From the NCBI GenBank assembly GCA_047974625.1, contig JBKECK010000068.1, forward strand, positions 68,714 through 132,713: DNA of 64,000 nucleotides, given 5' to 3'. Below, in pieces: positions 1-24,382 of the stretch. This DNA comes from Acidimicrobiales bacterium. Lineage in GTDB: Bacteria; Actinomycetota; Acidimicrobiia; Acidimicrobiales; SZUA-35. The notes below the pieces were generated by a model, which was not told the origin of the DNA, did no database searches, and worked only from the letters and a program-made list of their open reading frames with translations. The stretch's first letter is position 1, and each line of letters starts with the position of its first letter. The position numbers and the translations under genes were made by a program.

Positions 1-3000
1 TCGAGCCACACCCGGTCGCCGATCGACCCGGCGACCACGGTGGCCGAGACGTCGTTGGAGATCACATTGAGTGAGATCTCCGGGATCCGGCCTCCGAAGT
101 TGTTCGTGTAGATGTCGCCTCCGGAGGCACCGGTGACCCGTCCTGTGGGGTTGAAGGCCGGGGTCCCGCCAACGTTGCCCACTGGGTCGATGGTCACCGT
201 GACGGTGTGGGCCCCGCCCGCGCCGGAGATGACGCCGGTGTCGAACCGGATGGCGGTGATGTCGGCGGGATCGAGGGAGCCACACTCCAGTGGGCTCAGT
301 GCTGTGCACTGGGTCCACGTGGTGGTGCCGGTCCCGGCGGTCTGACCGTCGGGAAGGGTGGCACCGCTTGACGAGTAGGTCCGGTAGCAGAGGTCACCGT
401 CAGTCGGGACGTACCCGAGCGCCAGGTTCGATCCGGCGCACGGGTCGACGGACACGCTCCCCGGTTCGGCGTCGGTGGCCCAAAACACCTCGCTGTTGCC
501 ACCGCTCACCGCGGTGACCTGGTAGTCGCCGGAGTACCGGGAGGCCGGGGTCCGGTCGGTCTGGATCCCACCGGAGTAGTCGCCGTCTCCCCGGTACGGG
601 AGAACGTCGATGAACGAACCACCGCTGTAGTCCTCCAATCCAAGATTGCGGTACTGGAGGTCGAAGGCGATCGGGGTATCGACCTCGACGATCTGGTCGG
701 CCACCGCCTTCAGGACATCGAACCCTGTGCCGGCCTCCATGTAGACCTGGTATTTGACCGTGCGACGGTTGGAGGCACCATCACCGTCAGTGTCGGTGCC
801 CATGTCGGAGTCGATGGAGGCGCTGTTGGTGAACGTCCCCGAAGTCACGCTGCTGTCGACGGCGACCTGATACCTGATGAGCGGAAGCTGCTCGGAGTTC
901 TGGATGTCGGCGAAGTGGTACTCGAGACGCGACGCGGCTGCTCCGTGGCCGGTCGGGGTCACCGACGAACCGGCGAGGGTCATGGTCACGTCCGGGCTGG
1001 AGACCTGGTACTGCGCGAACGTGAGCCAGGTGCTCCCGCCATCGACACTGAATCGTTCGGACCCGAACACGAAGTCGGTCTGGCCCGGGAGTTGGTCCAT
1101 GATCTGCGCCGTGCTCTGGGTCGCCTCGTTCCACTGCCCTAGGACCTGGGGCTGGAGTTCGAACTCGACGGTCTGGCCGGCGTTGACCACCTTCAAACCG
1201 GCTGGGACCGTCCGTTTGGCGATGCTGTGGGCCGACGAAACGACCCGCATCCGGTCGGCATAAGCGCCTTCGTAGCTGAAGGAGGGGTCAGCAGGGTTGG
1301 CCGACCCGGTCCCCACACCGGACCATGACGACCAGGTACCAGCGGCATCGCTCCGTCTGGCGACCGCCCACAACGGAATCAGATTATTGGGCCCGTAGCC
1401 CATCGCACCGAGCTTGACCTTGATGTCGTAGTTGACTGCGATCGCCACGTGATCGACGCCAGGGTGCAAGGCGTTCAGATGGTCGGTGTCGATGTCGAGC
1501 TGATAGCGGATCTTGGTGATGGCCTGGTTGCCGCCTGGCACCGCTTGAGCGTCGGCGTACCAGTCGACTACAGCGCCCGGAGTCGACTGGGTGCCGTCGG
1601 CGGCCTGGATGTTGACGACGCTATCGCTGTTGACATCGTCGGCGCAGGTGTCGTTCTGGAGCTCGGTCAGCGCGGCGGCTGGTTCGGTCGAGTACAGGAA
1701 GGACAGGTACGTGGTCGGGTCGTGGTGGGTCGCGTTGGCGGTGGTTCCAGCCCACAGCACCAGAGACGGGTTCCGAGTTGATCGGTTGAACGAGTAGGCC
1801 GTCGTCGATGGTGCGGGGGCACCAGTAAGGCCCACGAACTCGGTGACTGAGGTGTCGATCTTGGTGCAATGTTGGTCCGAAGATCCGTCGATCATCCGGT
1901 AGTCCCAGACGTTCGCCTGGGCGAAGGCGACATCGCCGGGGGCGACCGCTTCGATGGTCGTGGCCTTCTGCGGAATACCCCAAGCCACCAGACCGTCCCA
2001 CCCGACCGAGGCCGACCAGCCGCCGGGGCTGGTCTTCCGCAGCGGGAACGACGCCGTCGAGTCGGTGGGGAACGCTTCGCCGGCGCCGCCGTAGTTCGGC
2101 AAGTTGTTTCCACCGGCGTCCTCGGTCGAGTACGGATTGAAGCCCACCTGCGCGCCACCTTCGAGGGCGCCCACCCGATTGGATTCGAAGATCTCACACA
2201 CCCCAGTGAGGCACGACGGGTCGGTATCGAGTTCGGAGGTGTGGAGGTGCCACAGGGTCAGCTTGAACTCGAATAGGTTGCCGTCGCCGTCCGGGTCACG
2301 GACATCGACGTTGTCCAACTGAACGGTGATGGTCGGATCATCCTGGGGAGGCTCGCCCCCGATAGCGCTGACGAAGTCACCCGACACCTGGTTCGGAGTA
2401 CAGGTGATCGACGCCGCGGCGCCGTGGTCACCCAGCAAGGTGCACGCCGAGCCGGTAGGTCCCCAGGTGTAAGGGATGGCGCCCGATGACAGACCCGAGC
2501 CGGTGGTGTTGTTGGGATTGTCGTCGGTGTAGGCGTCGAGCAGCGTGTAGTCGACCTGGTAGGTCACCTCGTCGGAGTCGGCCAGCATCGAACCTGGCTC
2601 GTAGGTAGCCCGGACCACATACTCCATCAGCGTTCCGGGTTGGTTGGACGGGCCCACGGCGTACCTGGGTTGGTACAGCGGGTTCCCTTCGGCGTCGACC
2701 CCCTCGACCGGCAACGACTTCGTCAGGTTAACCTTGAACCCGGCGGTCACCGTAGTCTCGGTCGGTCCGGCCGTAGCCTCCGCCGAGGGACCCTCAGCAT
2801 TCTGGGCCCACGCCCTCACCATGGCCGAGACGTGATCGTCGTTGCGGGTGACCTGGCCGTCGGAGGCCACGGGTACCACCCTCGCCGTCGGATAGAGGAC
2901 CCGGTTGGTGCCCTCGCTCCCGGTGCCGACGTTGCACACCAGTAGCCGTTTGTCACCACCAGGCTGCCCGGTCGCCGAGTCGGCGATGACCGACGCCGGT

Positions 3001-3368
3001 GTGCCGTCCGCACGGCACTCCTGGGGCATCTGGACCCACTGCTGTTTGGGATCGAGCATGACCTCGGCCACCAACGCGTCGGCCGCGCCATCGTTGAGGC
3101 TCAGCTCCACCTGATAAGCAATCGTGTCGTGCAGCCGGACGACGTCATTAGTCGCGTTGGCATCAAGCCCCGCATCGGTGACGGCGACCGGGTCCCAGGT
3201 GGCGCCATCGAACGGTTCCGAACCGGTCTTCGAGGTACTGAGGGTAACCCTTACCGTTGGGACGGCAGCCTCGGCTGCTGGTGCAGTCCACGTCAATGTG
3301 GTTGCCGTGACCGCGGCGACGGCCAGCAGCGCGAGCCAGACTGAACGTGGGGTGCGAGATGTGACCAT
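1..3368 (-). CDS. Large secreted repeat-domain surface (adhesin-like) protein, N-terminal ~1120 codons; the gene continues past the left edge
   Basis: Absent from the ORF track because no stop lies inside the window. The minus frame starting at ATG 3368 is the only frame with no competing listed ORF across 3.3 kb. Hand translation begins MVTSRTPRSVWLALLAVAAVTATTLTWTAPAAEA/AVPT, a Sec signal peptide with an AxA site. It runs through DUF11-like repeat segments (VNAGQTVEFELQ...MDQLPGQTDFV; IVEVDTPIAFDLQYRNLG...FIDVLP). At the window edge it reaches GSIGDRVWL, the usual start of SdrD/Cna-B-type repeats. Confidence 0.7.
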   Translation of the reverse strand, partial: MVTSRTPRSVWLALLAVAAVTATTLTWTAPAAEAAVPTVRVTLSTSKTGSEPFDGATWDPVAVTDAGLDANATNDVVRLHDTIAYQVELSLNDGAADALVAEVMLDPKQQWVQMPQECRADGTPASVIADSATGQPGGDKRLLVCNVGTGSEGTNRVLYPTARVVPVASDGQVTRNDDHVSAMVRAWAQNAEGPSAEATAGPTETTVTAGFKVNLTKSLPVEGVDAEGNPLYQPRYAVGPSNQPGTLMEYVVRATYEPGSMLADSDEVTYQVDYTLLDAYTDDNPNNTTGSGLSSGAIPYTWGPTGSACTLLGDHGAAASITCTPNQVSGDFVSAIGGEPPQDDPTITVQLDNVDVRDPDGDGNLFEFKLTLWHLHTSELDTDPSCLTGVCEIFESNRVGALEGGAQVGFNPYSTEDAGGNNLPNYGGAGEAFPTDSTASFPLRKTSPGGWSASVGWDGLVAWGIPQKATTIEAVAPGDVAFAQANVWDYRMIDGSSDQHCTKIDTSVTEFVGLTGAPAPSTTAYSFNRSTRNPSLVLWAGTTANATHHDPTTYLSFLYSTEPAAALTELQNDTCADDVNSDSVVNIQAADGTQSTPGAVVDWYADAQAVPGGNQAITKIRYQLDIDTDHLNALHPGVDHVAIAVNYDIKVKLGAMGYGPNNLIPLWAVARRSDAAGTWSSWSGVGTGSANPADPSFSYEGAYADRMRVVSSAHSIAKRTVPAGLKVVNAGQTVEFELQPQVLGQWNEATQSTAQIMDQLPGQTDFVFGSERFSVDGGSTWLTFAQYQVSSPDVTMTLAGSSVTPTGHGAAASRLEYHFADIQNSEQLPLIRYQVAVDSSVTSGTFTNSASIDSDMGTDTDGDGASNRRTVKYQVYMEAGTGFDVLKAVADQIVEVDTPIAFDLQYRNLGLEDYSGGSFIDVLPYRGDGDYSGGIQTDRTPASRYSGDYQVTAVSGGNSEVFWATDAEPGSVSVDPCAGSNLALGYVPTDGDLCYRTYSSSGATLPDGQTAGTGTTTWTQCTALSPLECGSLDPADITAIRFDTGVISGAGGAHTVTVTIDPVGNVGGTPAFNPTGRVTGASGGDIYTNNFGGRIPEISLNVISNDVSATVVAGSIGDRVWL

Positions 3369-3532
3369 CAGCGAAAGGCATCGGCAACTTTCGGTGATGA
3401 TTGAGTTATCAACGAAAACTGAACGAGCGCCATGCCGTCATGATGCTGGTCAATGCCGTGTCCGTCGTCGGCCAGTTCCAGTGATCAGTGCACGGTGAGG
3501 GCTGAACCTGACCCCTGATACCGGAGTCCGAA

Positions 3533-3870
3533 TTGAGAGGACCTAATACGGGAAGGCGTCCGAAGTTTGATGCGGAGTTTTGTGCTCACGCAGTGGAGAT
3601 GGTCGGGTCGTCTGGCCGTCCGAGGTATCAGGTCGCAAAGGATCTGGGTGTTTCTGGCACTACCATCGCGAAGTGGATGGCTGCTGAGAAAACCAATGAC
3701 GATCCGGAACCGTCGTCGGTCTCTGAACGATAGGATTATGAACGTCTCCTGAATGCCGAGCGTGAATGGCAGATGGAACGAGAGATCCTAAAAGGAAATG
3801 AGCTTCTGGGTGAAGGCGTCGACCGGCCGGTTGAAGTACCGGTTCATCGATGCCCAGAACGCCCGGATCG
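3533..3870 (+). mobile_element. Degraded IS3-family transposase orfA relic (in-frame TAG plus frameshift; 3' part missing)
   Basis: 3533-3733 encodes RRPKFDAEFCAHAVEMV...RYQVAKDLGVSGTTIAKWM, an IS3/IS911 OrfA-type HTH. After the TAG at 3731 the same frame continues ERLLNAEREWQMEREILK. The +1 frame then continues MSFWVKAS..RLKYRFIDA, a typical OrfA C-terminus. No orfB/DDE part and no terminal inverted repeats were seen. The relic abuts the 3' end of the YcaO operon, and GC is locally lower. Confidence 0.6.
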
Positions 3871-3905
3871 ATCCTTCGACTGGTGAGCGGGTCGGCGAGT
3901 TCCGT

Positions 3906-5285
3906 TCAGTGCGGAAGAGGTTGCAGACGGAGACCGGTGCCGTTGGCTCGCCTATCCATGCGGGTGCCGCCGAGGAAGGGGAACGCCGCGGCTCCGTTGG
4001 AGTACAGCCCGGAAGCGATCACGCGGACGACACTGAGCCCGGCTCTGCGAACGTCGGAGGTGGTGACATCCACCGACACGGCCCGGATTCCGGCGTCGGT
4101 GAGGGTTGCCACGATCCCGGGGAGGTCCATCGCGGGCGGTGAGCCCAATGGCTCATGCATCTCCGAGTCGAGAAGCGGCCAGGACGTCAGCTCCCGTTCG
4201 AGGTCATCGGCCAACTGGGGGTCGAGGTAGGCCTGCATGTGGCAACCGGGGTCGACTGCGTCATGCCAGTCCGGGCGGTAGTCGAGCAGGTAGGAACGGT
4301 CTTGTCGCCACGGCTTGAGCGGGCTGTCCGGGCTGCGGGTCAGTGGACCGAACGCTGAGTCCGGGTCGTTGAGGTCGGCCATCACGGTCTGAATGTGGGC
4401 CGCCTCGGCGAGCGCCTTCACACACGCCGCCGCGGTCACATCCGGATACCAGGCGGTACCAAGAGTGAGGTAGCCCCGGACCTGATCCCGCATGAGCGCA
4501 CCCACGCAGGGCGCACCGAAATCGCTCGGAAACGTCACGAAGGTAGTGCGCAACTCTCCGGTCGGCCCGGAAGCGAGTCGCTCCAACCAGTGCGGTGCCT
4601 GCAGCCGGGCTCCCGTCGCCCCTGTGGTCCAAGTCAGCGTCATCGCGTCCCGTTCGATGAGTTCCCGCACCGCGCTGGACTCGGCGTGGGTGCGGTCACT
4701 GCCTGCGGCGATGCCAGCGTAGACGGTCGCGTTGGTGATCGGTTCGCCGACGCTGAACCCGTGGGCGAAGTAGTTCGTCCAGACCAGGGAGGCCGGCACC
4801 CACACCGGGGCTCGGGTAAGCACGTCCTGGCCCTCCACCCACCGCACCGGCAAGTCGGGGGGGAACCGGCAGAACGGGAAACCGCGCTCGTTGTACTGGG
4901 CGTCGCTGTACAACGCCAATCCAGTCGGGTCGAGCGCGTCTTCGTCCGCAGCTTGCAACTGCTCGAACGAGGCCCGGCGCAGGCCTGGCGGAACGATGTT
5001 TCCGCTATACCGCTCGGCCGCCTCCCCGATGGCGGCTGCAACGGCTCCTGGTAGGTCCCACAGCACCGATCCCATTCCCGACGGATCGCTGCGCCAGGGG
5101 CAGAACCGCGTCGAATCGGCGATATCTGCTTGGACCAGCTGCAACGCCTGTGGCAGGTGGTCCGGGACAAGGCGTCGAGCGAGCCGGGACACGATCCCGG
5201 TCCGGGAGCCGACGAGTAGGTTCTTCGGGTCGGGGGCGGAGAGGTCGCCCCCGAGGTCCAACTGTGTGTTCGTCATCACGAGCAA
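3906..5285 (-). CDS. YcaO-domain protein, paralog C (last gene of the operon)
   Basis: Motifs AIGEAAERYSGN, LYSDAQYNERGFPFCRF...VRWVEG...VWVPASLV, YAGIAAGSDR...ELIERDAMTLTW and a Pro-rich C-terminal tail LQPLPH. The N-terminal SRTGIV...ADSTRF signature is shared with the other two paralogs. The true start may be GTG 5279 or ATG 5276, downstream of a GGAG. Confidence 0.85.
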   Translation of the reverse strand: MLVMTNTQLDLGGDLSAPDPKNLLVGSRTGIVSRLARRLVPDHLPQALQLVQADIADSTRFCPWRSDPSGMGSVLWDLPGAVAAAIGEAAERYSGNIVPPGLRRASFEQLQAADEDALDPTGLALYSDAQYNERGFPFCRFPPDLPVRWVEGQDVLTRAPVWVPASLVWTNYFAHGFSVGEPITNATVYAGIAAGSDRTHAESSAVRELIERDAMTLTWTTGATGARLQAPHWLERLASGPTGELRTTFVTFPSDFGAPCVGALMRDQVRGYLTLGTAWYPDVTAAACVKALAEAAHIQTVMADLNDPDSAFGPLTRSPDSPLKPWRQDRSYLLDYRPDWHDAVDPGCHMQAYLDPQLADDLERELTSWPLLDSEMHEPLGSPPAMDLPGIVATLTDAGIRAVSVDVTTSDVRRAGLSVVRVIASGLYSNGAAAFPFLGGTRMDRRANGTGLRLQPLPH

Positions 5286-5327
5286 CTCCGTTCAGCGACG
5301 CCCCGGCGAGCAGCGTCAGCCGTGGTT

Positions 5328-6683
5328 TCAGCAGGGCAGCGGGTAGTCACGAGGCGGACCGGGAGCGGCCGCACGGGCAGCATCCAGGCGCGCCCCACCA
5401 AGGAACGGGTAGGCGGCCGGGCCCGAGGAGTACAGCGCCGGGGCGATAACCCGGACGACGACCAGCCCGGTTCGGGCGAAGCCCGACGGGGTCAGGTCGA
5501 CCGACACGGGTGTGATCCCGGCAGCGGCCAACCGTGACAGGAGTTCGTCGGCGGCAGGGCCCGGGGACTGTGTCGGCGACGTTGGCGCTGCGAGCGGCCA
5601 CTGCCCGACGTCGGACTCCAGCCGATCGGCCAGCGCCGGGTCCAGGTACGCCTGCAGGTGACAGGCCGGGTCTCCGGCATCGCGCCAGTCGGGCCGGTAG
5701 CTACTGAGGTACCTGCGGTCGTCACGCCACGGTTTGAGCGGGCTGCTGGGATCGACTCGCAACGCCTCGAAGCCGGAGTCCGGGTCGTCCAGGTCCGCGG
5801 CGATCATCTGGCCGTGTAGGGCTTGGGCGAACGCTTCGTGCAGCGCAGTGCCCCTCACTGTGGCGGGTCGCCAGGAGGTGCCGAGTGTGAGGTAGCCCAA
5901 CGATCGGTCCCGCACCAACACGCCGACGCTTGGAGGGCCGAACTCGCTGGCGAACTCGACGAAGGTGGTCCGCAACCGGCCCGTGGGTCCGCGCCCAAGT
6001 GCGGCGAGGTGCCCGCCCACGTCCAGGCGTCGACCGACCGCTCCGCTGTGCCAGGTGAGTTCGCGCGCGTCTGCCTCGATCAGGCTGAACAGCGCAGCGC
6101 GTTCGGCTGCTTGGCGGGTGGGGCCCGAGGCGATGGCGGTGTGCAGGGTGGCGTGCGTTGCTGCTTCTGGCTCTCCTGTCTCGTCCGGTCGGGCTGTCCA
6201 TGCCAGCGAGGCGGGAACCCAGACCGCTTCGTGGCCGGTCATGGTGCGTCCACGGGCCCACCGCAGCGACAGGTCGGGGTCGAACGGCACGAACGGGAAG
6301 CCGGGAGCGGCGTACTGCGCGTCGGAGTACAGCGACAACGTAGTCGGGTCGAGTACTCGCTCGCCGCCTGCGGTGAGCTCGGCGTACGTGCTGCGCCGGA
6401 GTCGGGCTGTGACGAAATTGCCCGCGTAGCTCTCCACGGCGGCGGCCAGAGCAGCGTGGGTCGCCGCGGCGTCGTCCCACAGAGCCAGGCCGACGACGGC
6501 GACGTCAGTGGTCCACGGCCCGAAGCGGGTGGAGTCTGCCAGTTCGGCGCAGACCACCCGCAGGCACTGGGGCAGGTGCGGTGGAACTCCAGGCCGGAGG
6601 AGGCGTCGGACCAGGCCGGTTCGGGCATCCACCACCACGAGCTGCAACTGGTCGGTCGTTGGCCCCCGCGTCGCCACGTTCAC
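5328..6683 (-). CDS. YcaO-domain protein, paralog B (divergent nucleotide-binding motifs)
   Basis: Same overall architecture (LYSDAQYAAPGFPFVPF...LRWARG...VWVPASLAW, C-terminal DYPLPC). The two acidic motifs, however, read AAAVESYAGN and SLIEADARELTW instead of GEAxERY and ELIERDA. The GTG start at 6683 overlaps the TGA of paralog A (GTGA). Confidence 0.8.
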   Translation of the reverse strand: MNVATRGPTTDQLQLVVVDARTGLVRRLLRPGVPPHLPQCLRVVCAELADSTRFGPWTTDVAVVGLALWDDAAATHAALAAAVESYAGNFVTARLRRSTYAELTAGGERVLDPTTLSLYSDAQYAAPGFPFVPFDPDLSLRWARGRTMTGHEAVWVPASLAWTARPDETGEPEAATHATLHTAIASGPTRQAAERAALFSLIEADARELTWHSGAVGRRLDVGGHLAALGRGPTGRLRTTFVEFASEFGPPSVGVLVRDRSLGYLTLGTSWRPATVRGTALHEAFAQALHGQMIAADLDDPDSGFEALRVDPSSPLKPWRDDRRYLSSYRPDWRDAGDPACHLQAYLDPALADRLESDVGQWPLAAPTSPTQSPGPAADELLSRLAAAGITPVSVDLTPSGFARTGLVVVRVIAPALYSSGPAAYPFLGGARLDAARAAAPGPPRDYPLPC

Positions 6684-8041
6684 GAGTAGGGCAGTGGGTC
6701 ACGCACCAGATCCGCTTCGGTCAGCGGTTCCGATGCCCAGCCGAGGAGGTGCGGTACCTCATAGAGCCGCCGACCGCCGAGCAGGGGGAGCGCTGCGGGC
6801 GCGTATCCGACGAGGCCAGGAGCGAGGACCCGGGTTACGTGCCAGCCAGCGGCGGCTACGTCGGCGCTGGTGCTGTCCACCGCGATGGCCCGTACGCCTT
6901 CGCGCTCGAGCGCGGTCACGCAGTGGAGGAACACGTCGGGGCCGATCTCCGGCATGTCGGCCAGGGACACGATCTCGACGGGTTTCTCGAAGCGGTGGGT
7001 GATTCGCTGCTGGGCCTCCGGGTCGAGGTAGAGCTGGGTGTGCGAGGCGAGGTCGGAGACGTCACGTAGGTCGTCGCGGAAGCTGCGGACATACGACCGG
7101 TCGGCACGGAAGGGACGGTAGGGGTGAGCGTACGCTGCCGCTGACCCGTCCATCGTGTACAGCCGTGCGTCTGGATCGAGCAGTTCGACGCCGAACAGCA
7201 GCCCGTCGATGGCCTCGACCAGCGCCTTGGCCGCGGCCGCAACCGGCTCGCCGCGACTGGCCGCGCCCCAGGCGATGAGCCCCCGCCGAGTGTCGTGTAG
7301 GAACGCACCGACGACTGGGACACCGAAGGTCGTCCGTAGCCACAGCAGTCGACACACGGTGCCCTGCTCATCCAGTTCGGTAGCCCACGCGGCAAGCCGG
7401 CCGTCGGAGTTCACGTCGATCTCGGTTCCGGGGGCTCCGCTCATCCACCAGATCGTCATGGCGTCGCGTTCGATCAGTTCGAGCAGGGCCGAGACGTAGG
7501 CCTGGCCTCGACGCGTTCCCGCCGCCATCCCCGCGTACATCTGGGCAACCGTGGGTTCGCCGGGTGGCGGGAGGTAGTTCAACAGGACCAGGCAGGCCGG
7601 CACGAGCACCTGCGTGTCCGCGACCAGGTCCCGGCCGGGGATCCAGGCGATGGTGGATTCTGCCGTAATCGGTGCGAACGGGAACCCGGGGGTCTCGTAC
7701 TGGCTGGCCGAGTACGGTGCGGCTTGCGCCGGGTCCAGGGCGTTGTGTCCGGATTCCCGTAGTTCTCTGAACGAGGCCCGGGTCAGGCTGGTCGGTTCGA
7801 TGTTGCCGCAGTAGCGTTCGAGCGCCTCCCCGACCGCAGCGGCACGGGCGGCGTCGGGGTTGTCGAGAGCGCTGCCGTGCCCGCACGGGTCGGCGCGCCA
7901 GGTCGCGAACCGGCTGGTGTCCGCCACGTGGGCGGTGAACGCCGAGTGCGAACGCAGGTAGCGATGTCTCGGGTCATCGGGTCGCACCGCGGTGATCAGG
8001 CCGGTACGGCCGTCAACCAAGCGGCCAGAAATACTGCTCAC
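6680..8041 (-). CDS. YcaO-domain protein, paralog A
   Basis: Motifs AAVGEALERYCGN, PYSASQYETPGFPFAPI...IAWIPG...VLVPACLV, YAGMAAGTRR...ELIERDAMTIWW and C-terminal DPLPYS. The start lies 11 nt after the stop of the partner gene. Confidence 0.85.
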   Translation of the reverse strand: MSSISGRLVDGRTGLITAVRPDDPRHRYLRSHSAFTAHVADTSRFATWRADPCGHGSALDNPDAARAAAVGEALERYCGNIEPTSLTRASFRELRESGHNALDPAQAAPYSASQYETPGFPFAPITAESTIAWIPGRDLVADTQVLVPACLVLLNYLPPPGEPTVAQMYAGMAAGTRRGQAYVSALLELIERDAMTIWWMSGAPGTEIDVNSDGRLAAWATELDEQGTVCRLLWLRTTFGVPVVGAFLHDTRRGLIAWGAASRGEPVAAAAKALVEAIDGLLFGVELLDPDARLYTMDGSAAAYAHPYRPFRADRSYVRSFRDDLRDVSDLASHTQLYLDPEAQQRITHRFEKPVEIVSLADMPEIGPDVFLHCVTALEREGVRAIAVDSTSADVAAAGWHVTRVLAPGLVGYAPAALPLLGGRRLYEVPHLLGWASEPLTEADLVRDPLPYS

Positions 8042-8052
8042 CTGAGTGCTGC

Positions 8053-8886
8053 TCAGTCAGCGAAGGCCGGTAGGGGGAGCACCGGGTGGCGGTGCACCAG
8101 CAGATCCACCGGATCCAACTCGATCTGGTCGAGCGCGCCGGGCGGATCCTGTCCGTCGAGGTAGGTGAGGACGTCGGTGACAATGTGCCCGGCGGCAACG
8201 GCGAGCGCACCCGGGCCCGGCCAGGGAACCGGCGGCTTGTGGGCCGCGGAGTCCAAGTAGGCCCAATGCGCCAGCAGCGCGTCTGGGGCACCGGCGGCGG
8301 CGAGCCGGCGGCCGCGGGTGTCGTGATAGCCGGCACTGACCCCCGGGATCGACAAGGGCCCGACGAAGAGCCTGACCCCTTCCATGTAGGCCATGTGCCA
8401 GGCCGTTCCCCCCTCAGCGCACCAGCCCTCCGTCTGCCGCCAGTCGGTGTCAGGGAGCCAACCGACACAGCTGATGAGCAGGTCCGAGCTGTTGACCGAC
8501 TCGGGAGTCAGCGGGTCGGTGTTCAGCTGCACCTCTCCGTCGAGCAAGGCGAGAACCTGGCGACCCAACGGCGTGTCAACACCGCTGACGAGTACCGTCG
8601 CCGCACGGGGCAGCGATTGGGGAGGGCCAGGCCGGCTCAGAAGGCCGCGGGCCATCAAGGCGGCCGCGAAGTGCGCGTGCACGTCGCCGGGGTCCTCTTC
8701 AAGGTGTGCGGCTTCAAGGTGTGCGGCTTCAAGGTGTGTGTCGCCATGAAGCGTGGCAACAAAATGCTCGAACTCCGGGCCGTCCACCTGCAGCCGCAGA
8801 AAGCGATCCTGAGGGGACATTGCGTTCCACGACCCGTCAGCGGTGCGGTAGACGTGGTGGCCGGGGGTGAGCCGAAGGTCGGTCAA
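8053..8886 (-). CDS. E1-like (ThiF-fold, non-catalytic) / RRE-type leader-peptide-binding partner protein for YcaO enzymes
   Basis: 277 aa, immediately upstream of the three YcaO genes. The N-terminal ~70 aa (LRLTPGHHVYRTADGSW...FLRLQVDGPEFEHFVATL) look like a winged-helix RRE. This is followed by a Rossmann-like strand-loop ATVLVSGVDTPLGRQVLALL without a GxGxxG nucleotide loop, as in TOMM/thiopeptide docking proteins. The TTG start at 8886 is preceded by GGAGA with a 7-nt spacer. The family call is by pattern only. Confidence 0.55.
   Translation of the reverse strand: MTDLRLTPGHHVYRTADGSWNAMSPQDRFLRLQVDGPEFEHFVATLHGDTHLEAAHLEAAHLEEDPGDVHAHFAAALMARGLLSRPGPPQSLPRAATVLVSGVDTPLGRQVLALLDGEVQLNTDPLTPESVNSSDLLISCVGWLPDTDWRQTEGWCAEGGTAWHMAYMEGVRLFVGPLSIPGVSAGYHDTRGRRLAAAGAPDALLAHWAYLDSAAHKPPVPWPGPGALAVAAGHIVTDVLTYLDGQDPPGALDQIELDPVDLLVHRHPVLPLPAFAD
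8707..8751. repeat. 15-nt in-frame tandem repeat x3 (cttcaaggtgtgcgg), encoding HLEAA-HLEAA-HLEED in the partner protein
   Basis: Two perfect copies plus a third that differs only at its end, read directly from the sequence. Confidence 0.9.
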
Positions 8887-9014: not shown

Positions 9015-9164
9015 TCAGTCGTCGGACTGGCTGTCGTCGGACTGGCTGTCGTCGGACTGGCTGTCGTCATCCCAGGCGAACGCAGCGTGCACGAGCGAGT
9101 TGTGCTTGTGCAGGGCGGCGATCGGGGCGGCGGTCTCGATGCTGTCGATTTCGATCGTGGGCAT
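9015..9164 (-). CDS. Candidate RiPP precursor peptide, 49 aa (below the size floor of the ORF track)
   Basis: Minus-strand reading is GGAGGA (9169-9174), AGCT, ATG (9164), 49 codons, TGA (9015-9017). Translation: MPTIEIDSIETAAPIAALHKHNSLVHAAFAWDDDSQSDDSQSDDSQSDD. No in-frame ATG or GTG lies upstream before the stop at 9228-9230. The ORF is on the same strand as, and 128 nt upstream of, the partner/YcaO genes. Confidence 0.7.
   Translation of the reverse strand: MPTIEIDSIETAAPIAALHKHNSLVHAAFAWDDDSQSDDSQSDDSQSDD
9018..9068. repeat. Perfect 15-nt tandem repeat x3.4 (gtcgtcggactggct), encoding the (DDSQS)n core of the small ORF
   Basis: Copies at 9018-9032, 9033-9047 and 9048-9062 are identical, followed by a partial gtcgtc at 9063-9068. 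Confidence 0.95.
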
Positions 9165-9216: not shown

Positions 9217-9258
9217 GATAGTAATCGTTATTATTCTCATTTCAGATCCGTGGTGCAA
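9217..9258 (-). promoter_or_regulatory. AT-rich divergent promoter region with a candidate sigma-70-type promoter for the precursor operon overlapped by a Fur-box-like 19-mer
   Basis: Minus strand shows TTGCAC (9258-9253), a 17-nt spacer, then AATAAT (9235-9230). The 19-mer GATAGTAATCGTTATTATT (9217-9235) matches the classical Fur box GATAATGATAATCATTATC at 13 of 19 positions, counted by hand. This is the only strongly AT-rich patch between the divergent precursor and MFS genes. Confidence 0.35.
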
Positions 9259-9430
9259 GTCGAGGTAGATCGGAGTGTTCTGTGACTCGTCGCACTCAGC
9301 CCAGCCGAGGGAACCGGACACCGACCGGGCCGATGTCCGGCGCGGTCAGGGGGCGCCGCACGCGCCCGCACCGCATGGTCTCGGACCCGCCGACGCCGCA
9401 GGCCCGCCGGGACAGGTGGCCCGGTTGCGC

Positions 9431-10669
9431 ATGAGGCTGCGTGAGCGTTACCCGGTCCCGGCGGCCGTGGTTCTCGTGTTGGTGGCACAGTTCGTCGCCC
9501 GCCTGCCCATGGGCATGTACTCGGTGGCGCTCGTGTTGGCGGTCGTGCACTGGACCAGTTCGTTCGCGACAGCCGGTGCTGCCGTGGCCGGTTTCAACCT
9601 TGCCGGTGGTGTGATCGCGCCGTTGGTCGGGCGACTGGCCGACCGTCATGACCCGCGCCCCATCCTTGGTGGCCTCGCTCTCGGACATGCGTTGGCAGTT
9701 GTCCTACTCGTTGCCACCGCCGAGGGGCTTCCCCACGTGGTCTTCCCGGTGCTCGCAGCGGTGGCCGGTGGCTGCATGCCTCCGATCGGGCCGGCGCTGA
9801 AGGCGACGTGGAGCCGACGATTCGATTCCGAGGACCGGGTGCTGCGGGCGGTGTTCGGCCTTGAGTCCGTGCTGGGCGAAGCGGTGTATCTACTGGGTCC
9901 CGCGCTGGCCGGTGCCGCGACCGCGCTCGGCGGGGAGCCGTTCTCGTTGCTCACGGCCGGTGCCCTGACCCTGGGCGGCACCGCAGCGATCATCGCCGGG
10001 TCGACGTTGGCCCACCCGCTCGCAGGAGCGACTCGTTCCGGTCCGAGCGCAGCGGCGCTGCGTTCACGGGGGCTGCAGATCCTGCTCGTGACCCAGGCGC
10101 TGTCGTTCGTCGCGTTCTCTGGGATCAGCCTCGGGGTGCTGGCCCTGGCGGAGGCCCAGGGCTTGTCCGCCACCGGTGCGCTGCTGCTGTCAGTGTGGGC
10201 GGCCGGTGCGGCCATCGGGGCGTTGATCTGGGGGGCGCGAGCCCAGTGGCCGGGTACACAGGCCCAGCAGTTGCACGCCGTGTTGTGGTTGGTCGCCGCC
10301 ACCAGCGGCGCGGTCGCGCTTGCGGGCGCAGCGCTTCCAGCCGTAGCTGCAACAGCAGGCTGGGCGTTGCTGGGCGCAGCCTTGCTGGCGGCGGGCGTGG
10401 CCCTCGCCCCCGGGGCGATCGTCGAGGCGACCCTGGTCGGTCAGGTCACGGCCGTCGGGCGTCGCACCGAGTCCTACGCCTGGCTCGGAACGGCGGCGCT
10501 GGTGGGGTCCGCTGCAGGCTCAGCACTGTTCGGCCTGCTGGTTGCACAGTGGGGAGGGGCAGCCGCCCTGATCGGCGCGGTGGTAACCGCCGCCGCCGCC
10601 GCGATGATCGCCGGCCTGGGACGACCGGCGCTGGAGCTGCCGACGGCTGTCGCGGACCGGGGATCCTGA
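9431..10669 (+). CDS. MFS transporter (putative exporter), divergent from the precursor gene
   Basis: About 12 hydrophobic segments, with MFS-like loops (GRLADRHDPRP after TM2). The track ORF starts at 9275, but its first ~50 codons are Arg/Pro/Gly-rich. ATG 9431 (MRLRERYPVPAAVVLVLVAQF) is the more plausible start. Confidence 0.7.
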   Translation: MRLRERYPVPAAVVLVLVAQFVARLPMGMYSVALVLAVVHWTSSFATAGAAVAGFNLAGGVIAPLVGRLADRHDPRPILGGLALGHALAVVLLVATAEGLPHVVFPVLAAVAGGCMPPIGPALKATWSRRFDSEDRVLRAVFGLESVLGEAVYLLGPALAGAATALGGEPFSLLTAGALTLGGTAAIIAGSTLAHPLAGATRSGPSAAALRSRGLQILLVTQALSFVAFSGISLGVLALAEAQGLSATGALLLSVWAAGAAIGALIWGARAQWPGTQAQQLHAVLWLVAATSGAVALAGAALPAVAATAGWALLGAALLAAGVALAPGAIVEATLVGQVTAVGRRTESYAWLGTAALVGSAAGSALFGLLVAQWGGAAALIGAVVTAAAAAMIAGLGRPALELPTAVADRGS

Positions 10670-10750: not shown

Positions 10751-11614
10751 ATGGCGGTCATGGACGGCGGGCTGCACAGAGCGGGATTGATCGGCGGGGC
10801 AGGCCCCCACCGTCGGGTGGTGGCCATCGACACGGGTCCGCTGCTGGCCGTACATGCGCTCGGCGCCGCTGAGCAGCTGGTCGCGGTCAACGCACTGGAC
10901 GACGGGCGGCTTCCGGACGATGCCACCTGGACGGGGCGCCGGCTGGACCAGCGATTCCCGCCCCTGGAAGCCATCATCGACCTCGAGCCGGACCTGGTCG
11001 TCTCGGGTGACAACGAGGCGTTTGAACCCGGCGCCTTCGGAGACCGGTACGCCCTCGCAGATCGGGGCATCGCCAGCTTCCTCTTCGCCGAGGCCGCGAC
11101 CGAAGGAGACGACGACGCCGACCCGGTCACGCTCGAGTCAACGTGGGCGGACCTCACCGCGCTCGGCACAGCCCTCGGTCGCGACGAGGCGGCCGCGCAG
11201 CTGGTCGCCGATCAGCGAGCGGAGCTTTCGGCGGTTCCCGGAGGTTCGGCGGTTCCCGGAGGTAACGAGTCGGTGGTGCTGGTCGTGGATGACTGGTTCG
11301 CCGACGGGTCGATGCTGACCGCTGGCGGGGTGGCGGTCGTGTCAGATCTCCTCCGGCGAGCCGGCTGCCGGGGCACCTTCGACGACCGCCCATGGGCCTA
11401 CGGCACGGTCGCGGCGGACGACCTCGCCGAGCGCCCGCCCGAAGGGGTGCTCGTCAGTGACTACGGCCGTCGTAGCGTCGACGAGAAACTGCGACGCCTG
11501 GGACGGATCGTGGATCTCCACGGAGTCGGGGTCGTCGTGTTGCCGCTGCACACCACCGTGGAGGGGGTCGGCAACGCCGAAGCCATCGCCGAGCTCGCGG
11601 TGCTGCAGAAGTGA
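10751..11614 (+). CDS. FecB/BtuF-type (cluster A/type 8) periplasmic-binding-protein homolog lacking any signal peptide
   Basis: RVVAIDTGPLLAVHALGAAEQLVAV...PPLEAIIDLEPDLVV... is typical of siderophore/cobalamin binding proteins. The ORF is already maximal (a stop lies upstream) and has no signal or lipobox segment. It contains an 18-nt x2 repeat (11227-11262, SAVPGG x2). Confidence 0.5.
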   Translation: MAVMDGGLHRAGLIGGAGPHRRVVAIDTGPLLAVHALGAAEQLVAVNALDDGRLPDDATWTGRRLDQRFPPLEAIIDLEPDLVVSGDNEAFEPGAFGDRYALADRGIASFLFAEAATEGDDDADPVTLESTWADLTALGTALGRDEAAAQLVADQRAELSAVPGGSAVPGGNESVVLVVDDWFADGSMLTAGGVAVVSDLLRRAGCRGTFDDRPWAYGTVAADDLAERPPEGVLVSDYGRRSVDEKLRRLGRIVDLHGVGVVVLPLHTTVEGVGNAEAIAELAVLQK

Positions 11615-11678: not shown

Positions 11679-12461
11679 TCAGTTGGGCCTGAGGCGGACG
11701 CGTGGTTGGCCGTAGACAAGTTGCGGAACACCGTCCGGGCCGTCGACACGGCGGACGCTGATGCCGTAGACAGACTCGATGCGCTCCGGGTGCAGGACCT
11801 CTGACGGCAGGCCCTCGGCAATCACCGCGCCGCGGTTGAGCAGTACCAGCCGGTCGCAGTAGCGCGCCGCCAGGTTGAGGTCGTGGAGAACGATGACGAC
11901 AGACGACGCCAGGCGGCAGACCAGGTCCAGCAGTTCGTGTTGGTAGCGAACGTCGAGGTGGTTGGTCGGCTCGTCCAGGAAGAGGTGGTCGACATCCTGG
12001 GCCAGCGCCCTGGCCAGTAGCACCCGCTGCCGCTCGCCTCCAGAAAGCTCGGTGATCAGATCGTCGGCGCGGTCACGGAGCCCGACCTGGGTCAGCAGCT
12101 CCGCGGCGACCCGGTGGTCTTCAACGTCGTAGCTGAGGAACGGGCCACGTTGTGGGGCCCGGCCGAGCAGCACCATCTCCGCGACGGTCATCGCCAGTTC
12201 CGACACGGGGTCCTGCACCACAACGGCGACGCGGCGAGCGAGGTGGCGTGGGCGCAGGTCGGCAACGTCGTCACCGTCGATCAGGACGCTGCCGCCGCTC
12301 GGCCGGATGGCCTTGTAGAGAGACCGCAACATCGTGGTCTTGCCCGACCCGTTGGGGCCGATGAGGCCGACGATCTCACCGGCCGCCGCCCGAAACGAGG
12401 CGCCGTCGAGGGCCCGCCGCGAGCCGTAGTCGACGGTGACGCGGCGGGCGTCGACGCTCAC
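11679..12461 (-). CDS. ABC transporter ATP-binding protein, FecE/FepC-type (iron-siderophore/cobalamin importer class)
   Basis: Walker A GPNGSGKTT, signature LSGGERQRV and Walker B LFLDEPTNHLD. The GTG start overlaps the stop of the binding-protein gene (GTGA). Confidence 0.85.
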   Translation of the reverse strand: MSVDARRVTVDYGSRRALDGASFRAAAGEIVGLIGPNGSGKTTMLRSLYKAIRPSGGSVLIDGDDVADLRPRHLARRVAVVVQDPVSELAMTVAEMVLLGRAPQRGPFLSYDVEDHRVAAELLTQVGLRDRADDLITELSGGERQRVLLARALAQDVDHLFLDEPTNHLDVRYQHELLDLVCRLASSVVIVLHDLNLAARYCDRLVLLNRGAVIAEGLPSEVLHPERIESVYGISVRRVDGPDGVPQLVYGQPRVRLRPN

Positions 12462-13450
12462 GAGGTGGCGAGTCCCTCGCTGATGATCTGCAGCCCCTCC
12501 AGCGCGGAGGGTGACGGCTCGGCGAAGACCCCCGGGACCGACACGAGGCGGTCGTTCGCTATGGCCTGGAGGTCCTCCGCACCCGGCAGAGCCAGCAGTC
12601 GGCGCATCGTCTCCTCCTCGTCGATTTCAGGGCTCAGGCTGTGGAACAGCACAATGGTGTCCGGGTCGGCCGCGATCAGCTCTTCGATGTTCAGCTCGAA
12701 GAACTGCTCCTGCACATCGCCGAAGACGTTGTCCAGACCCAACTGGTCGAATACTGCGTCGACCACCGAGTCGTCACCGAATGCCGACGGGTCCGCCCCG
12801 AACCAGTAGAGGCCGGCGACCGTCCCACCGCCCTCAACCGGTTCGACGTCCTCAAGGGTGCTGTCGAACTCATCCGCGGCCGCGTCCGCGGTGCCCTGGG
12901 TCCCGAACAGTTCGCCGTAGGTGCGAATGTCGGCGCTGACCAACTCCAGGGCCGAGGCATCCGCCAGCTCGCCGTCGTGGTCGCCGCAGTAGTTGGCGAT
13001 CAAGAGATGGTCGACGCCGGCCGCGGCGAGGTCCTCTGGAGTGGTCTCGAACAGTCCGTAACTGACCACCAGGTCAGCCCCGGTTCCGAGGATCGCCTCC
13101 TGTCCGGGGTCGCCGTCGGTCAGGACCTCGACATCGGCGACCGCTTCCCCGGCCTCGCCCGGTGCCGTCGCGCCGAACTCGCCGGCACGGGACACGATGA
13201 GATCGGACGCACCGGCAGCATGCAGGATCTCGACCGCGACGGTGCCGATGGTCAGAATGCCCTCGGGGGCATCCTCGATCACGACCTCCTCGCCACAGTT
13301 CTCGATGGTCATCGGGAACGAAGCTGCCGTATCGTCGCCCTCGTCGACAGTGGTCGCCGCGGACTCCTCGTTCGGCTCCGCGCTGCTGCAGGCGCTGGCG
13401 ACGAGTACCAGGACCAGGACGGTGACGATCGATGCAATTCGTGTGGTCAC
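12458..13450 (-). CDS. ABC substrate-binding lipoprotein, FecB/siderophore-binding type
   Basis: The real start is GTG 13450, preceded by AGAGGA with an 8-nt spacer. The N-terminus VTTRIASIVTVLVLVLVASAC is a lipoprotein signal with a lipobox Cys. The listed longer ORF (to 13624) overlaps the permease gene. Confidence 0.7.
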   Translation of the reverse strand: MTTRIASIVTVLVLVLVASACSSAEPNEESAATTVDEGDDTAASFPMTIENCGEEVVIEDAPEGILTIGTVAVEILHAAGASDLIVSRAGEFGATAPGEAGEAVADVEVLTDGDPGQEAILGTGADLVVSYGLFETTPEDLAAAGVDHLLIANYCGDHDGELADASALELVSADIRTYGELFGTQGTADAAADEFDSTLEDVEPVEGGGTVAGLYWFGADPSAFGDDSVVDAVFDQLGLDNVFGDVQEQFFELNIEELIAADPDTIVLFHSLSPEIDEEETMRRLLALPGAEDLQAIANDRLVSVPGVFAEPSPSALEGLQIISEGLATS

Positions 13451-13469
13451 GAACAGGTTCCTCTCTGGA

Positions 13470-14609
13470 TCAGGGATTGGTGGGAGTCTTGGGGGCTGTG
13501 CGGCGGAGCAGCAGAACGATGAAGGGGGCCCCGACCAGGGAGGTGACGACGCCGATGGGCAACTCACGGGGGGCGAACGCGACGCGGGCGAGGATGTCGG
13601 CGCCGACCAGCAGGGCAGCCCCACTCAGGGCGGCGACGGGTAACAGCCGACGGTGGACACCGCCGACCAGCCGGCGTGCCAGGTGGGGAACCACCAGGCC
13701 GACGAATCCAATGGTGCCCGACACCGCGACCATGACGCCGATGCAGAGTGCGACCAAGACGAGCGTGTTCGTGCGGACCCGCGTCGGGTCGGTGCCGAGG
13801 GTCCGTGCGGTCTCGTCGCCGGCAGCGATCGCGTCGAGGGACCTGCTGAGGGCGATGAGGACGAGCAGCACGACGACAACGGTCAGCATGGGGACCGCCA
13901 CACTCGACCATCGGGCCTGATCGAGGCCGCCGAGCAGCCAGAACAGCACCGCTCGGGCACCCTCCCGGGCGTCAGAGGCGAAGATGGTGAAGCTGGTCAG
14001 CGCCGACAGGGTGTACCCGACGGCGACCCCTGCCAGGATCAGGCGGATCGCCGTCGCCGGTCCGCCCAGCCGTGCCAGCGCGAAGACCAGGCCGATGGCA
14101 GCCAACCCCCCGACGAAGGCGCTGCCCGCCAACGCGTTTGCCCCCAGCGCGCTGCCCACCCCGAACAGGATGCTGAGCGACGCCCCGAACGACGCGCCCG
14201 AGGAGACGCCGAGCAGGTAGGGATCGGCCAGCACGTTGCGGACCAGAGCCTGGATCGCCACCCCGCAGATCGACAGCCCCGCCCCGACGGCAAGGCCCAG
14301 CAGCACCCTGGGTGTCCGGACCAGCCAGACGATGTTGTCCTGCGTCGTGGTCCAGGTGACCTCCGCAGGGACGCCGACGGTGTGATGACCGATGACCGAC
14401 CAGACAACGTCCGGAGGGATCGGCACCGGGCCCAGGGCCACGCCCAAGGTGACAACCGCCACCAGCGCCGCCGCGGTTCCCAGGGTCCAGATCAGAACCT
14501 GCCGACGCCGACGGTTGTAATCCAGGTCGTCGGTGAACTCAGGTGCCGGCTCATCGGGTTCGGCACCTCCAAGCGGCACCGCCTGGCGTTCGACGTCGGC
14601 CTGGCTCAC
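13470..14609 (-). CDS. FecCD-family ABC permease
   Basis: Polytopic membrane protein with typical FecCD segments (LLGLAVGAGLSICGVAIQALVRNVLADPYLLGVSSGASFG...; C-terminal VVTSLVGAPFIVLLLRR). Confidence 0.85.
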   Translation of the reverse strand: MSQADVERQAVPLGGAEPDEPAPEFTDDLDYNRRRRQVLIWTLGTAAALVAVVTLGVALGPVPIPPDVVWSVIGHHTVGVPAEVTWTTTQDNIVWLVRTPRVLLGLAVGAGLSICGVAIQALVRNVLADPYLLGVSSGASFGASLSILFGVGSALGANALAGSAFVGGLAAIGLVFALARLGGPATAIRLILAGVAVGYTLSALTSFTIFASDAREGARAVLFWLLGGLDQARWSSVAVPMLTVVVVLLVLIALSRSLDAIAAGDETARTLGTDPTRVRTNTLVLVALCIGVMVAVSGTIGFVGLVVPHLARRLVGGVHRRLLPVAALSGAALLVGADILARVAFAPRELPIGVVTSLVGAPFIVLLLRRTAPKTPTNP

Positions 14610-14824
14610 ATCCTCTCCGACCGGTAGGTGGCGAGTGGCGTGTGGTGGGAGTCGCCCGCGCCGAGAAGCGCCCGGATCTCCGTTGCGGTTGGCCCCACAG
14701 CGCCGCCTCGGCGACGAGCGACGCGAGGGTGACTAGCCCGACAGCCAAGCACGTGAGGACCGGTCCGGCGACGGCTCCCACCAGGTGGAGTAGCAACAAT
14801 GCAGACGGTGGAGCACGTGGGGAC

Positions 14825-14861
14825 GATAACACTGGCAGGAATGAGAACCAGTATCGTTATC
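14825..14861. promoter_or_regulatory. AT-rich imperfect palindrome upstream of the FecCDE-type operon (candidate operator)
   Basis: GATAACACTGG-cAGGAATGAGAA-CCAGTatcGTTATC. It contains the octamers AATGAGAA (14840-14847) and ATCGTTAT (14853-14860). Both also occur in the precursor promoter patch: ATCGTTAT at 9224-9231, and TTCTCATT (the reverse complement of AATGAGAA) at 9234-9241. Confidence 0.3.
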
Positions 14862-14930
14862 TAGTGTTTAGGTCGATCGACTCACCACATGATCCTGGAC
14901 TTCGACTGGCGACGGTGACTCGGCCGCGCC

Positions 14931-15130
14931 ATGGCTGGATCGATCGCGTCTCCGGTGCTGGGGGGGATGCTCGTGGATGCCGCGGTCGCGGTGGATGTCC
15001 CTTATCAACGTTCCGCTGGGGCCGGTGGCGATCGTAATCAGCGCCGCGAGCGGGACGGGAGCAGGTTCGACCTGCTCGGCGCGCTCCTGCTCGGGGTTCG
15101 TCCCCCAGCCCCGGGAACCACCCCGTGCGG
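14931..15130 (+). pseudogene. Relic of a DHA2 (EmrB/QacA-type) MFS transporter gene, short and frameshifted
   Basis: Three consecutive pieces lie in two frames: GSIASPVLGGMLVDA, then RWMSLINVPLGPVAIVISA, then RFDLLGALLLGV. Together they reproduce the conserved TM5-TM6 region (G.LGG.LVD..WRW.FLINVP.G) of DHA2 transporters. No intact ORF is present. Confidence 0.5.
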
Positions 15131-15498
15131 ATCGCCTCGGAGCGTCTGCGAGGCGATATTCGCCGACTCGATCGCCGACGATGTGATGAAGTGATCTCCA
15201 GGCGTCGGCTCCGGCGGGCAGGGGGTTCCAGTTGGAGCCCCGGTTCCCCAGGTCGGGGCCCGTCATCGGCGAAGGGTTCGACTCCCCACCGGTCGGCCCT
15301 CGGCACCACACGCTCGGCGTGACTCAACGAGACGGCTCTGCGGGCTTCGGGCCCCCGTCGACTCGATGAGGGTGTCGGGGGTCGGCTGCCATGGGTCCGG
15401 TCCGGCACGTCCGGAAGCGATTGCGCCGTGGCCGGATGAGGCCCCCGCCGCGTCCGTTCTCACCCCCCACTCACTCGAATGACCCGAAGGAGGCCACG

Positions 15499-24250: not shown

Positions 24251-24254
24251 GTGC

Positions 24255-24350: not shown

Positions 24351-24382
24351 GCGACGACGCTACGCAGGGCGGGGACCGCCCG

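Follow-up and report, generated by a model that had tools for sequence, protein, structure and literature searches.

Does a row of three YcaO genes served by a single docking protein mark a new kind of peptide biosynthesis, or is it an elaboration of a known one? The locus that raises this question lies in a 64,000-nucleotide stretch of high-GC (guanine plus cytosine) DNA from an Acidimicrobiales bacterium (GenBank assembly GCA_047974625.1, contig JBKECK010000068.1, positions 68,714 to 132,713), hereafter the window. An operon on the minus strand carries, in order, a precursor peptide gene, a gene for a partner protein resembling AmiB of the streptamidine pathway, and the genes for YcaO-A, YcaO-B and YcaO-C. 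The original prediction, made from the letters alone, took this to be an operon for a peptide made on ribosomes and altered after translation (RiPP), comprising YcaO enzymes and one docking protein with E1-like and RiPP recognition element (RRE) features, and that description is supported here. It also suggested, subject to a database check, that the set belonged to no described family, and in this respect our results differ. With a probability of about 0.7, the locus belongs to the two-YcaO (motif-B-like) branch of the streptamidine-family RiPP operons, and its second YcaO has been duplicated. We place it in the streptamidine-like family because of its precursor, its partner, YcaO-A and the flanking FecCD, binding-protein and ATP-binding cassette (ABC) genes. 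Its novelty lies in the type of precursor, in the duplication of the second YcaO, of which one copy is degenerate yet conserved, and in the lack of a hydrolase and a dehydrogenase; it is not a new class.

The precursor and the family of the operon

The framework for this assignment is the study of Russell et al. (2021, PMC8442711), in which actinobacterial stand-alone YcaOs were mined; 'Network 1' of that study comprises 237 precursors from 57 genera, and the streptamidine-like family extends over more than 230 species. The conserved genes of the ami cluster are amiF1-4 (FecBCDE-like), amiA for the precursor, amiB, which has no domain match but a TruD-like RRE/E1 fold according to Phyre2, amiC for a hydrolase, amiD for the YcaO and amiE for a flavin dehydrogenase; ami clusters also carry two ABC exporters, amiT1/T2 (PMC8442711). 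Streptamidine itself is HLSATH with a six-membered N-terminal amidine, and its core lies directly upstream of SNALVENPF; AmiC and AmiE are essential for it in the ami cluster, although many family members are without them (PMC8442711). Two YcaOs and 'motif B' precursors set apart a subset of clusters from Frankia, Rhodococcus and Clavibacter (PMC8442711).

The precursor gene (positions 9015 to 9164, minus strand), an open reading frame (ORF) with GGAGGA 7 nucleotides before its ATG, encodes a 49-residue peptide, MPTIEIDSIETAAPIAALHKHNSLVHAAFAWDDDSQSDDSQSDDSQSDD. Homologues occupy the same position in the relatives L001-3 (from a stromatolite metagenome, 87% identical and with the same three YcaOs), L004 (Micromonospora tulbaghiae), L088, L089 and L090. 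All share with the window a conserved block, I[PA]A[LF]HK[HKR]N[AS]L[VL]Hx[PA]FxW, that has no Cys and just one Ser, replaced by Ala in L088, L089 and L090. This block aligns with motif B of the streptamidine-like precursors (…PQGPGTNALVHNPFAW): the published motif-B peptides end …AAPQGPGTNALVHNPFAW and the window precursor …IAALHKHNSLVHAAFAW, the latter being aligned as …IAALHKH--NSLVHAAFAW. Where the window has NSLVHAAFAW, its close relatives have NALVHSPFTW or NALLHNPFAW and motif B has NALVHNPFAW, the exact ALV being absent from the window; the peptides of L088-L090, IPA[LF]HK[HKR]NAL[VL]HxPFxW, bridge the window precursor and motif B. The window-type precursor looks like a subtype outside the data set of PMC8442711, as HKHNS, LHKH and KHN do not occur among the table rows listed there.

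The tail that follows this block behaves differently. In the window it consists of DDSQS repeats encoded by a perfect 15-bp tandem repeat of 3.4 copies (9018 to 9068; Tandem Repeats Finder), which is specific to the window and missing from the 87%-identical relative, whose tail is GDDSPVGNESA; the acidic tails of the other relatives are unrelated (TETADA in L004, DEDAEGEG in L088, GESEDAQ in L089 and DDEAEDVRKPPE in L090). Because the tail is not conserved while the block before it is, what had been called a 'Cys-free acidic core' is most likely a variable follower and not the core. The same comparison bears on the explanation under which the locus would represent a new RiPP class, with three active YcaOs sharing one partner and each modifying the acidic core, for example by converting the Ser residues of DDSQS to oxazolines. 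The three YcaO genes do coincide with three Ser-containing DDSQS repeats, and YcaO-A and YcaO-C pass the azoline-type TIGR03604 cut-off. However, with a repeat expansion unique to the window, a different tail beside the same three YcaOs in the closest relative, a YcaO-B without catalytic motifs and a family that is already described, we consider this explanation extremely improbable.

The partner protein

The partner gene (8053 to 8886, minus strand; 277 residues, start codon uncertain) has no Pfam match, and its match to TIGR03882 is weak (E = 6.5e-5). An AlphaFold2 model built from 23 homologues, with a mean predicted local distance difference test (pLDDT) score of 86, consists of three N-terminal strands and three helices, an RRE-like beta3-alpha3 unit, followed by a Rossmann-like, E1-like domain. 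A Foldseek search of the PDB with this model returned LynD (4V1T), TruD (4BS9), MccB, PaaA and McbB, with E-values from 6e-11 to 4e-9. The modelled architecture is thus that of an RRE joined to an E1-like domain, which argues that the label first given to this protein was right. With respect to family, the partner is 40% identical (E = 3e-54) to that of the Frankia motif-B cluster L087, and its similarity to a motif-A partner is weak yet detectable (E = 7e-5).

The partner gene contains a second perfect 15-bp tandem repeat (2.8 copies, 8697 to 8738), which encodes HLEAAHLEAAHLE, falls in a loop of the RRE region modelled with low confidence and is missing from the 267-residue orthologue. Thus, two in-frame 15-bp expansions, one here and one in the precursor tail, lie less than 400 bp apart.

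Origins of the three YcaO proteins

The three YcaO genes occupy positions 6680 to 8041 (YcaO-A, 453 residues), 5328 to 6683 (YcaO-B, 451 residues) and 3906 to 5285 (YcaO-C, 459 residues, although translation may start instead at the ATG at 5276), all on the minus strand. The ORF calls reproduce the boundaries and the strand originally given, as well as the 11-nucleotide gap between the partner gene and YcaO-A, the GTGA overlap between YcaO-A and YcaO-B and the 42-nucleotide gap between YcaO-B and YcaO-C. Scans for terminator and promoter consensus sequences yielded nothing useful within the operon.

Each of the three proteins matches PF02624 over the whole domain (approximately positions 7-324 of the 325 in the model), with E-values of 1.4e-57 for YcaO-A, 7.6e-35 for YcaO-B and 4.5e-41 for YcaO-C and respective scores of 196, 121 and 142 bits, compared to a cut-off of 25.7; the presence of three tandem YcaO genes is far beyond chance. 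The SagD-type model TIGR03604, with a curated cut-off of 219.25 bits, separates YcaO-A (284.8) and YcaO-C (245.1) from YcaO-B (174). The N-terminal RTG[LI][IV]...AD[ST][ST]RF signature and the C-terminal PLP, both listed among the shared hallmarks in the original prediction, are kept in all three. By contrast, the GEAxERY and ELIERDA regions, also attributed to all three, are present in YcaO-A and YcaO-C but replaced in YcaO-B. Likewise, the proteins are paralogues as claimed but not equivalent ones: YcaO-B and YcaO-C are 50-53% identical, whereas YcaO-A is 35-38% identical to either.

A profile scan with YcaO-A, taking one genome per species, yielded 80 loci from genera including Clavibacter, Frankia, Rhodococcus and Amycolatopsis, many of them with published precursor types (e.g. 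Clavibacter michiganensis L082 and Amycolatopsis L014). The homologues nearest to YcaO-A are the first YcaOs of loci with motif-B precursors (Clavibacter L082 and Frankia L087 are examples), and the Micromonospora locus L004 has the closest. In BLAST comparisons and neighbour-joining trees, YcaO-A groups with the first YcaOs of two-YcaO loci, and with the first YcaO of L004 in 99 of 100 replicates. These trees were built from a set without the characterised AmiD. The single YcaOs of motif-A loci are closer to the first-YcaO clade (37-40% identity) than to the second-YcaO clade (32-35%), and for this reason we take YcaO-A to be the equivalent of AmiD. By its sequence, then, YcaO-A is orthologous to the AmiD-like YcaO that comes first in such loci.

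Both YcaO-B and YcaO-C fall inside the second-YcaO clade, and YcaO-C is 53% identical to the second YcaO of Micromonospora and 60% identical to P0146 and P0147, second YcaOs of two-YcaO relatives. Both accordingly stem from the second YcaO, duplicated in this lineage. YcaO-B, YcaO-C, P0146, P0147 and the second YcaO of L089 form one clade with 93% support, inside which no branching order is well supported: neighbour-joining support for YcaO-B and YcaO-C as sisters is 97% when only distant relatives are included and falls to 22% once P0146, P0147 and the second YcaO of L089 are added. Because of this drop, we leave the duplication undated.

A conserved degenerate paralogue

To compare catalytic motifs, eight positions (E72, E75, R76, E188, E191, R192, K272 and E276 in YcaO-A numbering) were scored in 112 YcaOs of the family. 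All eight residues are kept in 108 of these, including YcaO-A and YcaO-C, and two more proteins differ at a single position; only YcaO-B and its orthologue in L002 differ heavily, with two of the eight residues kept and six replaced. In place of the GEAxERY, LIERDA and KALxEA of its paralogues, YcaO-B reads AAAVESY, LIEADA (S..EAD) and EAFAQA. In McbD, a conserved Mg-coordinating Glu is essential, and the E167A replacement nearly abolishes processing (PMC6395948). YcaO-B is probably a non-catalytic paralogue that retains a full-length YcaO fold, and of the three proteins only YcaO-A and YcaO-C look catalytically competent.

Such a loss of motifs could also mean that YcaO-B is a decaying, functionless duplicate and that the operon is at present an ordinary two-YcaO cluster. 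The six lost residues are what one would expect in that case, and YcaO-B does evolve somewhat faster than its neighbours: in comparisons with L002, the ratio of nonsynonymous to synonymous substitution rates (dN/dS) is 0.30 for YcaO-B, compared to 0.20 for YcaO-A, 0.21 for YcaO-C and 0.24 for the partner. However, all these values are well below 1, the YcaO-B frame is intact and full length, with its start overlapping the stop of YcaO-A, and the same motif changes recur in orthologues at 83% (P0144) and 63% (P0145) identity, in three separate assemblies; P0145 is flanked by a truncated upstream gene and by a downstream gene of at least 454 residues. Because dN/dS is low and the same replacements recur in orthologues, YcaO-B is subject to purifying selection and thus maintained rather than decaying, and we regard decay as very unlikely. 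A text search of the literature returned no paper describing a conserved, catalytically dead YcaO subunit, or joining YcaO with pseudoenzyme.

A weakly scoring YcaO-like protein without catalytic residues (e.g. ALSEHY…HAHD) is also encoded 3' of the YcaO gene in another branch of the family (L055:11142-13103, L063:11350-13146, L060, L062, L065, L066, L081, L045 and L061); the copy in L045 has no Pfam match whatsoever. These sequences suggest that degenerate YcaO paralogues arose repeatedly.

Genes absent from the locus

The original prediction emphasized what the locus lacks, namely TfuA, a flavin-dependent dehydrogenase, a LanB-type dehydratase and a protease, and none of these was recovered. 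Searches with hidden Markov models (HMMs) and phmmer, seeded with sequences from relatives and accepted up to E <= 1 over the whole 64-kb window, detected no AmiC-type Peptidase_S15 hydrolase, no nitroreductase-type (AmiE-type) dehydrogenase and no Fur-family regulator. By phmmer there was no TfuA either, although the same query detects TfuA in L048, L050, L036, L041 and L068. Pfam and NCBIfam scans of the main ORFs between approximately 0.9 and 18.5 kb revealed no lanthipeptide-dehydratase or protease family.

An AmiC-type hydrolase gene lies between the partner and the first YcaO in all of the approximately 27 loci with two high-scoring YcaOs. One could therefore envisage that the extra YcaO replaces AmiC, acting like MusD as an ATP-dependent peptidase that exposes the N-terminus for amidine formation. 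Peptidase activity of a YcaO has been documented (PMC10885120), and MusD is among the solved structures closest to the YcaO domain (E = 2.3e-18). However, LynD and TruD score as well as MusD, the extra copy is YcaO-B, the one without catalytic residues, and YcaO-C is orthologous to the second YcaO of hydrolase-bearing clusters. Moreover, L089 and L090 lack the hydrolase with just two YcaOs, which implies that its loss is not tied to a third YcaO. We consider such a replacement quite improbable.

Comparison with known systems

The resemblance to the streptamidine ami cluster of Streptomyces albidoflavus J1074 extends over several features: a short precursor with an N-A/S-L-V-x-x-P/A-F block after a short variable segment, an RRE/E1-like partner without a Pfam match, a YcaO with a Pro-containing C-terminus, and adjoining genes for a FecBCDE-type importer and an exporter. 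The window differs in having three YcaOs instead of one, in lacking AmiC and AmiE, in its major facilitator superfamily (MFS) exporter in place of the ABC exporters AmiT1/T2, and in a predicted core that would be LHKH-like instead of HLSATH and is followed by SLV instead of ALV.

The two-YcaO motif-B clusters (Frankia L087, Clavibacter L082, Rhodococcus L022, Amycolatopsis L014) share with the window the gene order precursor, partner, YcaO1 and YcaO2, the MFS, FecCD, binding-protein and ABC genes, and a precursor ending, in their case, …NALVHNPFA[WF]; YcaO-A is orthologous to their YcaO1, and YcaO-B and YcaO-C are co-orthologues of their YcaO2. Unlike in the window, however, a Peptidase_S15 hydrolase is encoded between the partner and YcaO1 in every one of them, and in many cases there is a nitroreductase; two PQGPGT-NALVHNPF units are usual in their precursors, and neither of their YcaOs has lost the catalytic motifs.

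Three YcaOs in a row, which had seemed to be a novel set, are not unique to the window, since they also occur in L048 (Desertimonas, another member of the Acidimicrobiia; 12446-14958), L050, L036, L041 and L068. In these loci, the third YcaO, though divergent, clearly belongs to PF02624 (E down to 1e-72), and a TfuA gene comes next; the L048 precursor, …HSSNHATIRNPGFAWK, belongs to 'Network 7, unknown family' of PMC8442711. The Network 7 clusters (L048, L050, L036 and L041) resemble the window in that three tandem YcaOs follow one partner, and their precursors have the form …SSNHAT[IL]RNxx[FV]AW. Their third YcaO is motif-intact and accompanied by TfuA, whereas the extra copy in the window is a degenerate duplicate of the second YcaO without TfuA. 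The third YcaO and TfuA of Network 7 are thus a separate three-YcaO arrangement, presumably one that adds a thioamide.

Among solved structures, those closest to the YcaO domain and the partner are LynD, TruD and McbBCD, which follow the same logic of RRE, E1-like domain and YcaO in the ATP-dependent activation of backbone amides. In LynD and TruD, unlike here, the partner and the YcaO are fused, whereas McbBCD acts on a core rich in Cys, Ser and Thr and includes a flavin mononucleotide (FMN) dehydrogenase, McbC, neither of which is present here. A lead to multi-YcaO pathways through muscoride (MusD) was discarded, as muscoride is a linear cyanobactin unrelated to this locus (PMC10885120). In the bottromycin pathway more than one YcaO also acts on one precursor, the two YcaOs making a thiazoline and a macroamidine; however, these enzymes work without an E1-like/RRE partner (as summarised in PMC8442711), the precursor has a follower but is unrelated in sequence, and the text consulted reports no metal-transport context.

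The wider YcaO clade includes yet another architecture, a single-YcaO relative without a separate partner in Streptomyces iakyrus (L086:3530-9621), the neighbours of which encode a Fur-family regulator, a superoxide dismutase, a FhuF-like reductase, a luciferase-like oxidoreductase and a MatE exporter.

Transport genes and Zur-type boxes

Divergent from the operon lies an MFS transporter gene (9275 to 10669, plus strand; PF07690), probably for the exporter, the first approximately 50 N-terminal residues of which are probably not translated; an MFS gene adjoins the operon in 41 loci overall, among them L001-3, L004 and L087. Beyond it, the Pfam and NCBIfam scans identified a periplasmic binding protein (Peripla_BP_2; 10751 to 11614, plus strand) and, on the minus strand, an ABC ATPase of the FecE, FhuC or heme type (11679 to 12461), a second Peripla_BP_2 protein (12458 to 13624) and a FecCD-family permease (13470 to 14609; PF01032, 1.6e-89). 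Most full-length loci have FecCD, binding-protein and ABC genes beside the cluster. The window and L002, its 87% relative, have orthologous core and MFS genes (78-87% identity), whereas the importer genes at 12458-14609 of the window and 80-2483 of L002 are not orthologous, the binding proteins being 27% and the permeases 38% identical. Sequence comparison thus points to a swap of importer cassettes, and because these importers are not orthologous, the operon has become associated with an importer more than once.

The promoter region between the operon and the divergent MFS gene contains an AT-rich imperfect palindrome (9219 to 9239; TGAGAATAATAACGATTACTA on the minus strand). Inspection of this region by eye revealed no IdeR/DtxR iron box, and a Fur-family 7-1-7 element fits better. 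The palindrome matches in position a Zur-type box of L002, TGATAACGGTTGTCA at 4031-4045, where the reference is the Streptomyces Zur box tGaNNatSatNNtCa (PMC5472717). Across the family, 7-1-7 palindromes that match this Zur box lie directly upstream of many precursor genes, for instance in L074 (TGAAAATGATTGTCA, 7588-7602), L007 (TGACAATCATTATCA, 7162-7176) and L026 (TGAGAATCATTCTCA, 7200-7214), and similar boxes are found at divergent transporter promoters of other loci, e.g. L045, L055, L063 and L036. Within a 600-nucleotide zone around the partner start, Zur-type boxes matching at least 10 of the 11 positions occur upstream of the precursor or partner in 9 of 71 loci, whereas 300 column-shuffled patterns averaged 0.28 loci and never exceeded 3; the enrichment over the rest of the loci is ten-fold (p = 5e-7). 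The family-wide boxes suggest control by zinc rather than iron, whereas for the window itself zinc control is only a lead. No paper linking streptamidine-like clusters to Zur was found in a text search of the literature.

Locus boundaries

At the downstream edge of the operon, where GC drops to approximately 0.60, lies a helix-turn-helix fragment of an IS3-type transposase (3533 to 3733, plus strand; PF01527, 4.7e-5). Positions 1-3900 have a lower GC content (0.60-0.66) and contain only short ORFs, none with a Pfam match; together with the transposase fragment, this region may be a degraded mobile element bordering the operon. Pfam gave no match for the ORFs at 877-1263, 1869-2276, 3124-3498, 14857-15408 and 15460-16467. 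A thiamine pyrophosphate (TPP) riboswitch (RF00059) at 24240-24352 on the minus strand, whose 56.7 bits exceed the gathering score, has no relation to the operon.

A proposed pathway and its weak points

Taken together, these observations can be arranged into a proposed scheme. The RRE of the partner would bind the conserved, follower-like block N[AS]L[VL]Hx[PA]FxW, and YcaO-A, together with the partner, would use ATP to phosphorylate a backbone amide and close a ring in the short basic segment upstream (…ALHKH); this would give an azoline or an amidine of the kind present in streptamidine. YcaO-C would make a second ATP-dependent backbone modification or cyclisation on the same basic segment, and YcaO-B would be a subunit with no catalytic role, such as part of a B:C heteromer or a scaffold that holds the peptide. 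Peptidases encoded elsewhere would trim the leader as well as the acidic follower with its DDSQS repeats, and the small product would be exported by the MFS pump. The importer genes and the metal-type regulation would tie the product to metal acquisition, with zinc likelier than iron.

Several observations weigh against this scheme or against the family assignment behind it. The window precursor has SLV in place of the ALV by which motifs A and B are defined, and the strings HKHNS, LHKH and KHN are not among the rows listed in the tables of PMC8442711. AmiC and AmiE, both essential for streptamidine, are missing from the window, so the pathway cannot be identical to that of streptamidine. Because no two-YcaO member has a known product, both the core position and the ring chemistry follow from analogy only. 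With respect to metals, a role of streptamidine in metal import was suspected, but no metal binding and no metal-starvation phenotype of its mutant was found (PMC8442711), and the Zur-like site of the window is itself degenerate, matching only 8 of the 11 positions. Finally, the role proposed for YcaO-B presupposes that the GEAxERY, ExxERD and KAxxEA residues form the ATP/Mg2+ site of YcaO enzymes, which we take from published YcaO structures, and YcaO-B could retain some activity through other residues.

A bolder version of the scheme would make YcaO-B an obligatory dead subunit that redirects YcaO-C, and would have the whole family induced through Zur by zinc limitation to produce His-rich, backbone-cyclised metallophores that scavenge zinc. 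We regard this combination as rather unlikely.

Implications

Once the locus is placed in the streptamidine-like family, what remains unusual is its exact gene set, that is, a duplicated second YcaO with a degenerate copy, and neither a hydrolase nor a dehydrogenase. The precursor subtype …ALHK[HKR]N[AS]L[VL]H… bridges the published motifs. The compact operon of precursor, partner and YcaO genes, free of hydrolase and dehydrogenase, is convenient for reconstitution and for study of the chemistry of the two-YcaO branch, and with the retained, motif-less YcaO-B one can test directly whether non-catalytic partners are used by YcaO enzymes.

Streptamidine-like clusters are present in hundreds of actinobacterial species. 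The enrichment of Zur-type boxes provides a concrete hypothesis for their regulation, zinc limitation, which could account for the failure of iron-centred assays to find anything. If the products were indeed zinc metallophores, this would provide a function for a widespread 'orphan' RiPP family that showed no activity in the original study.

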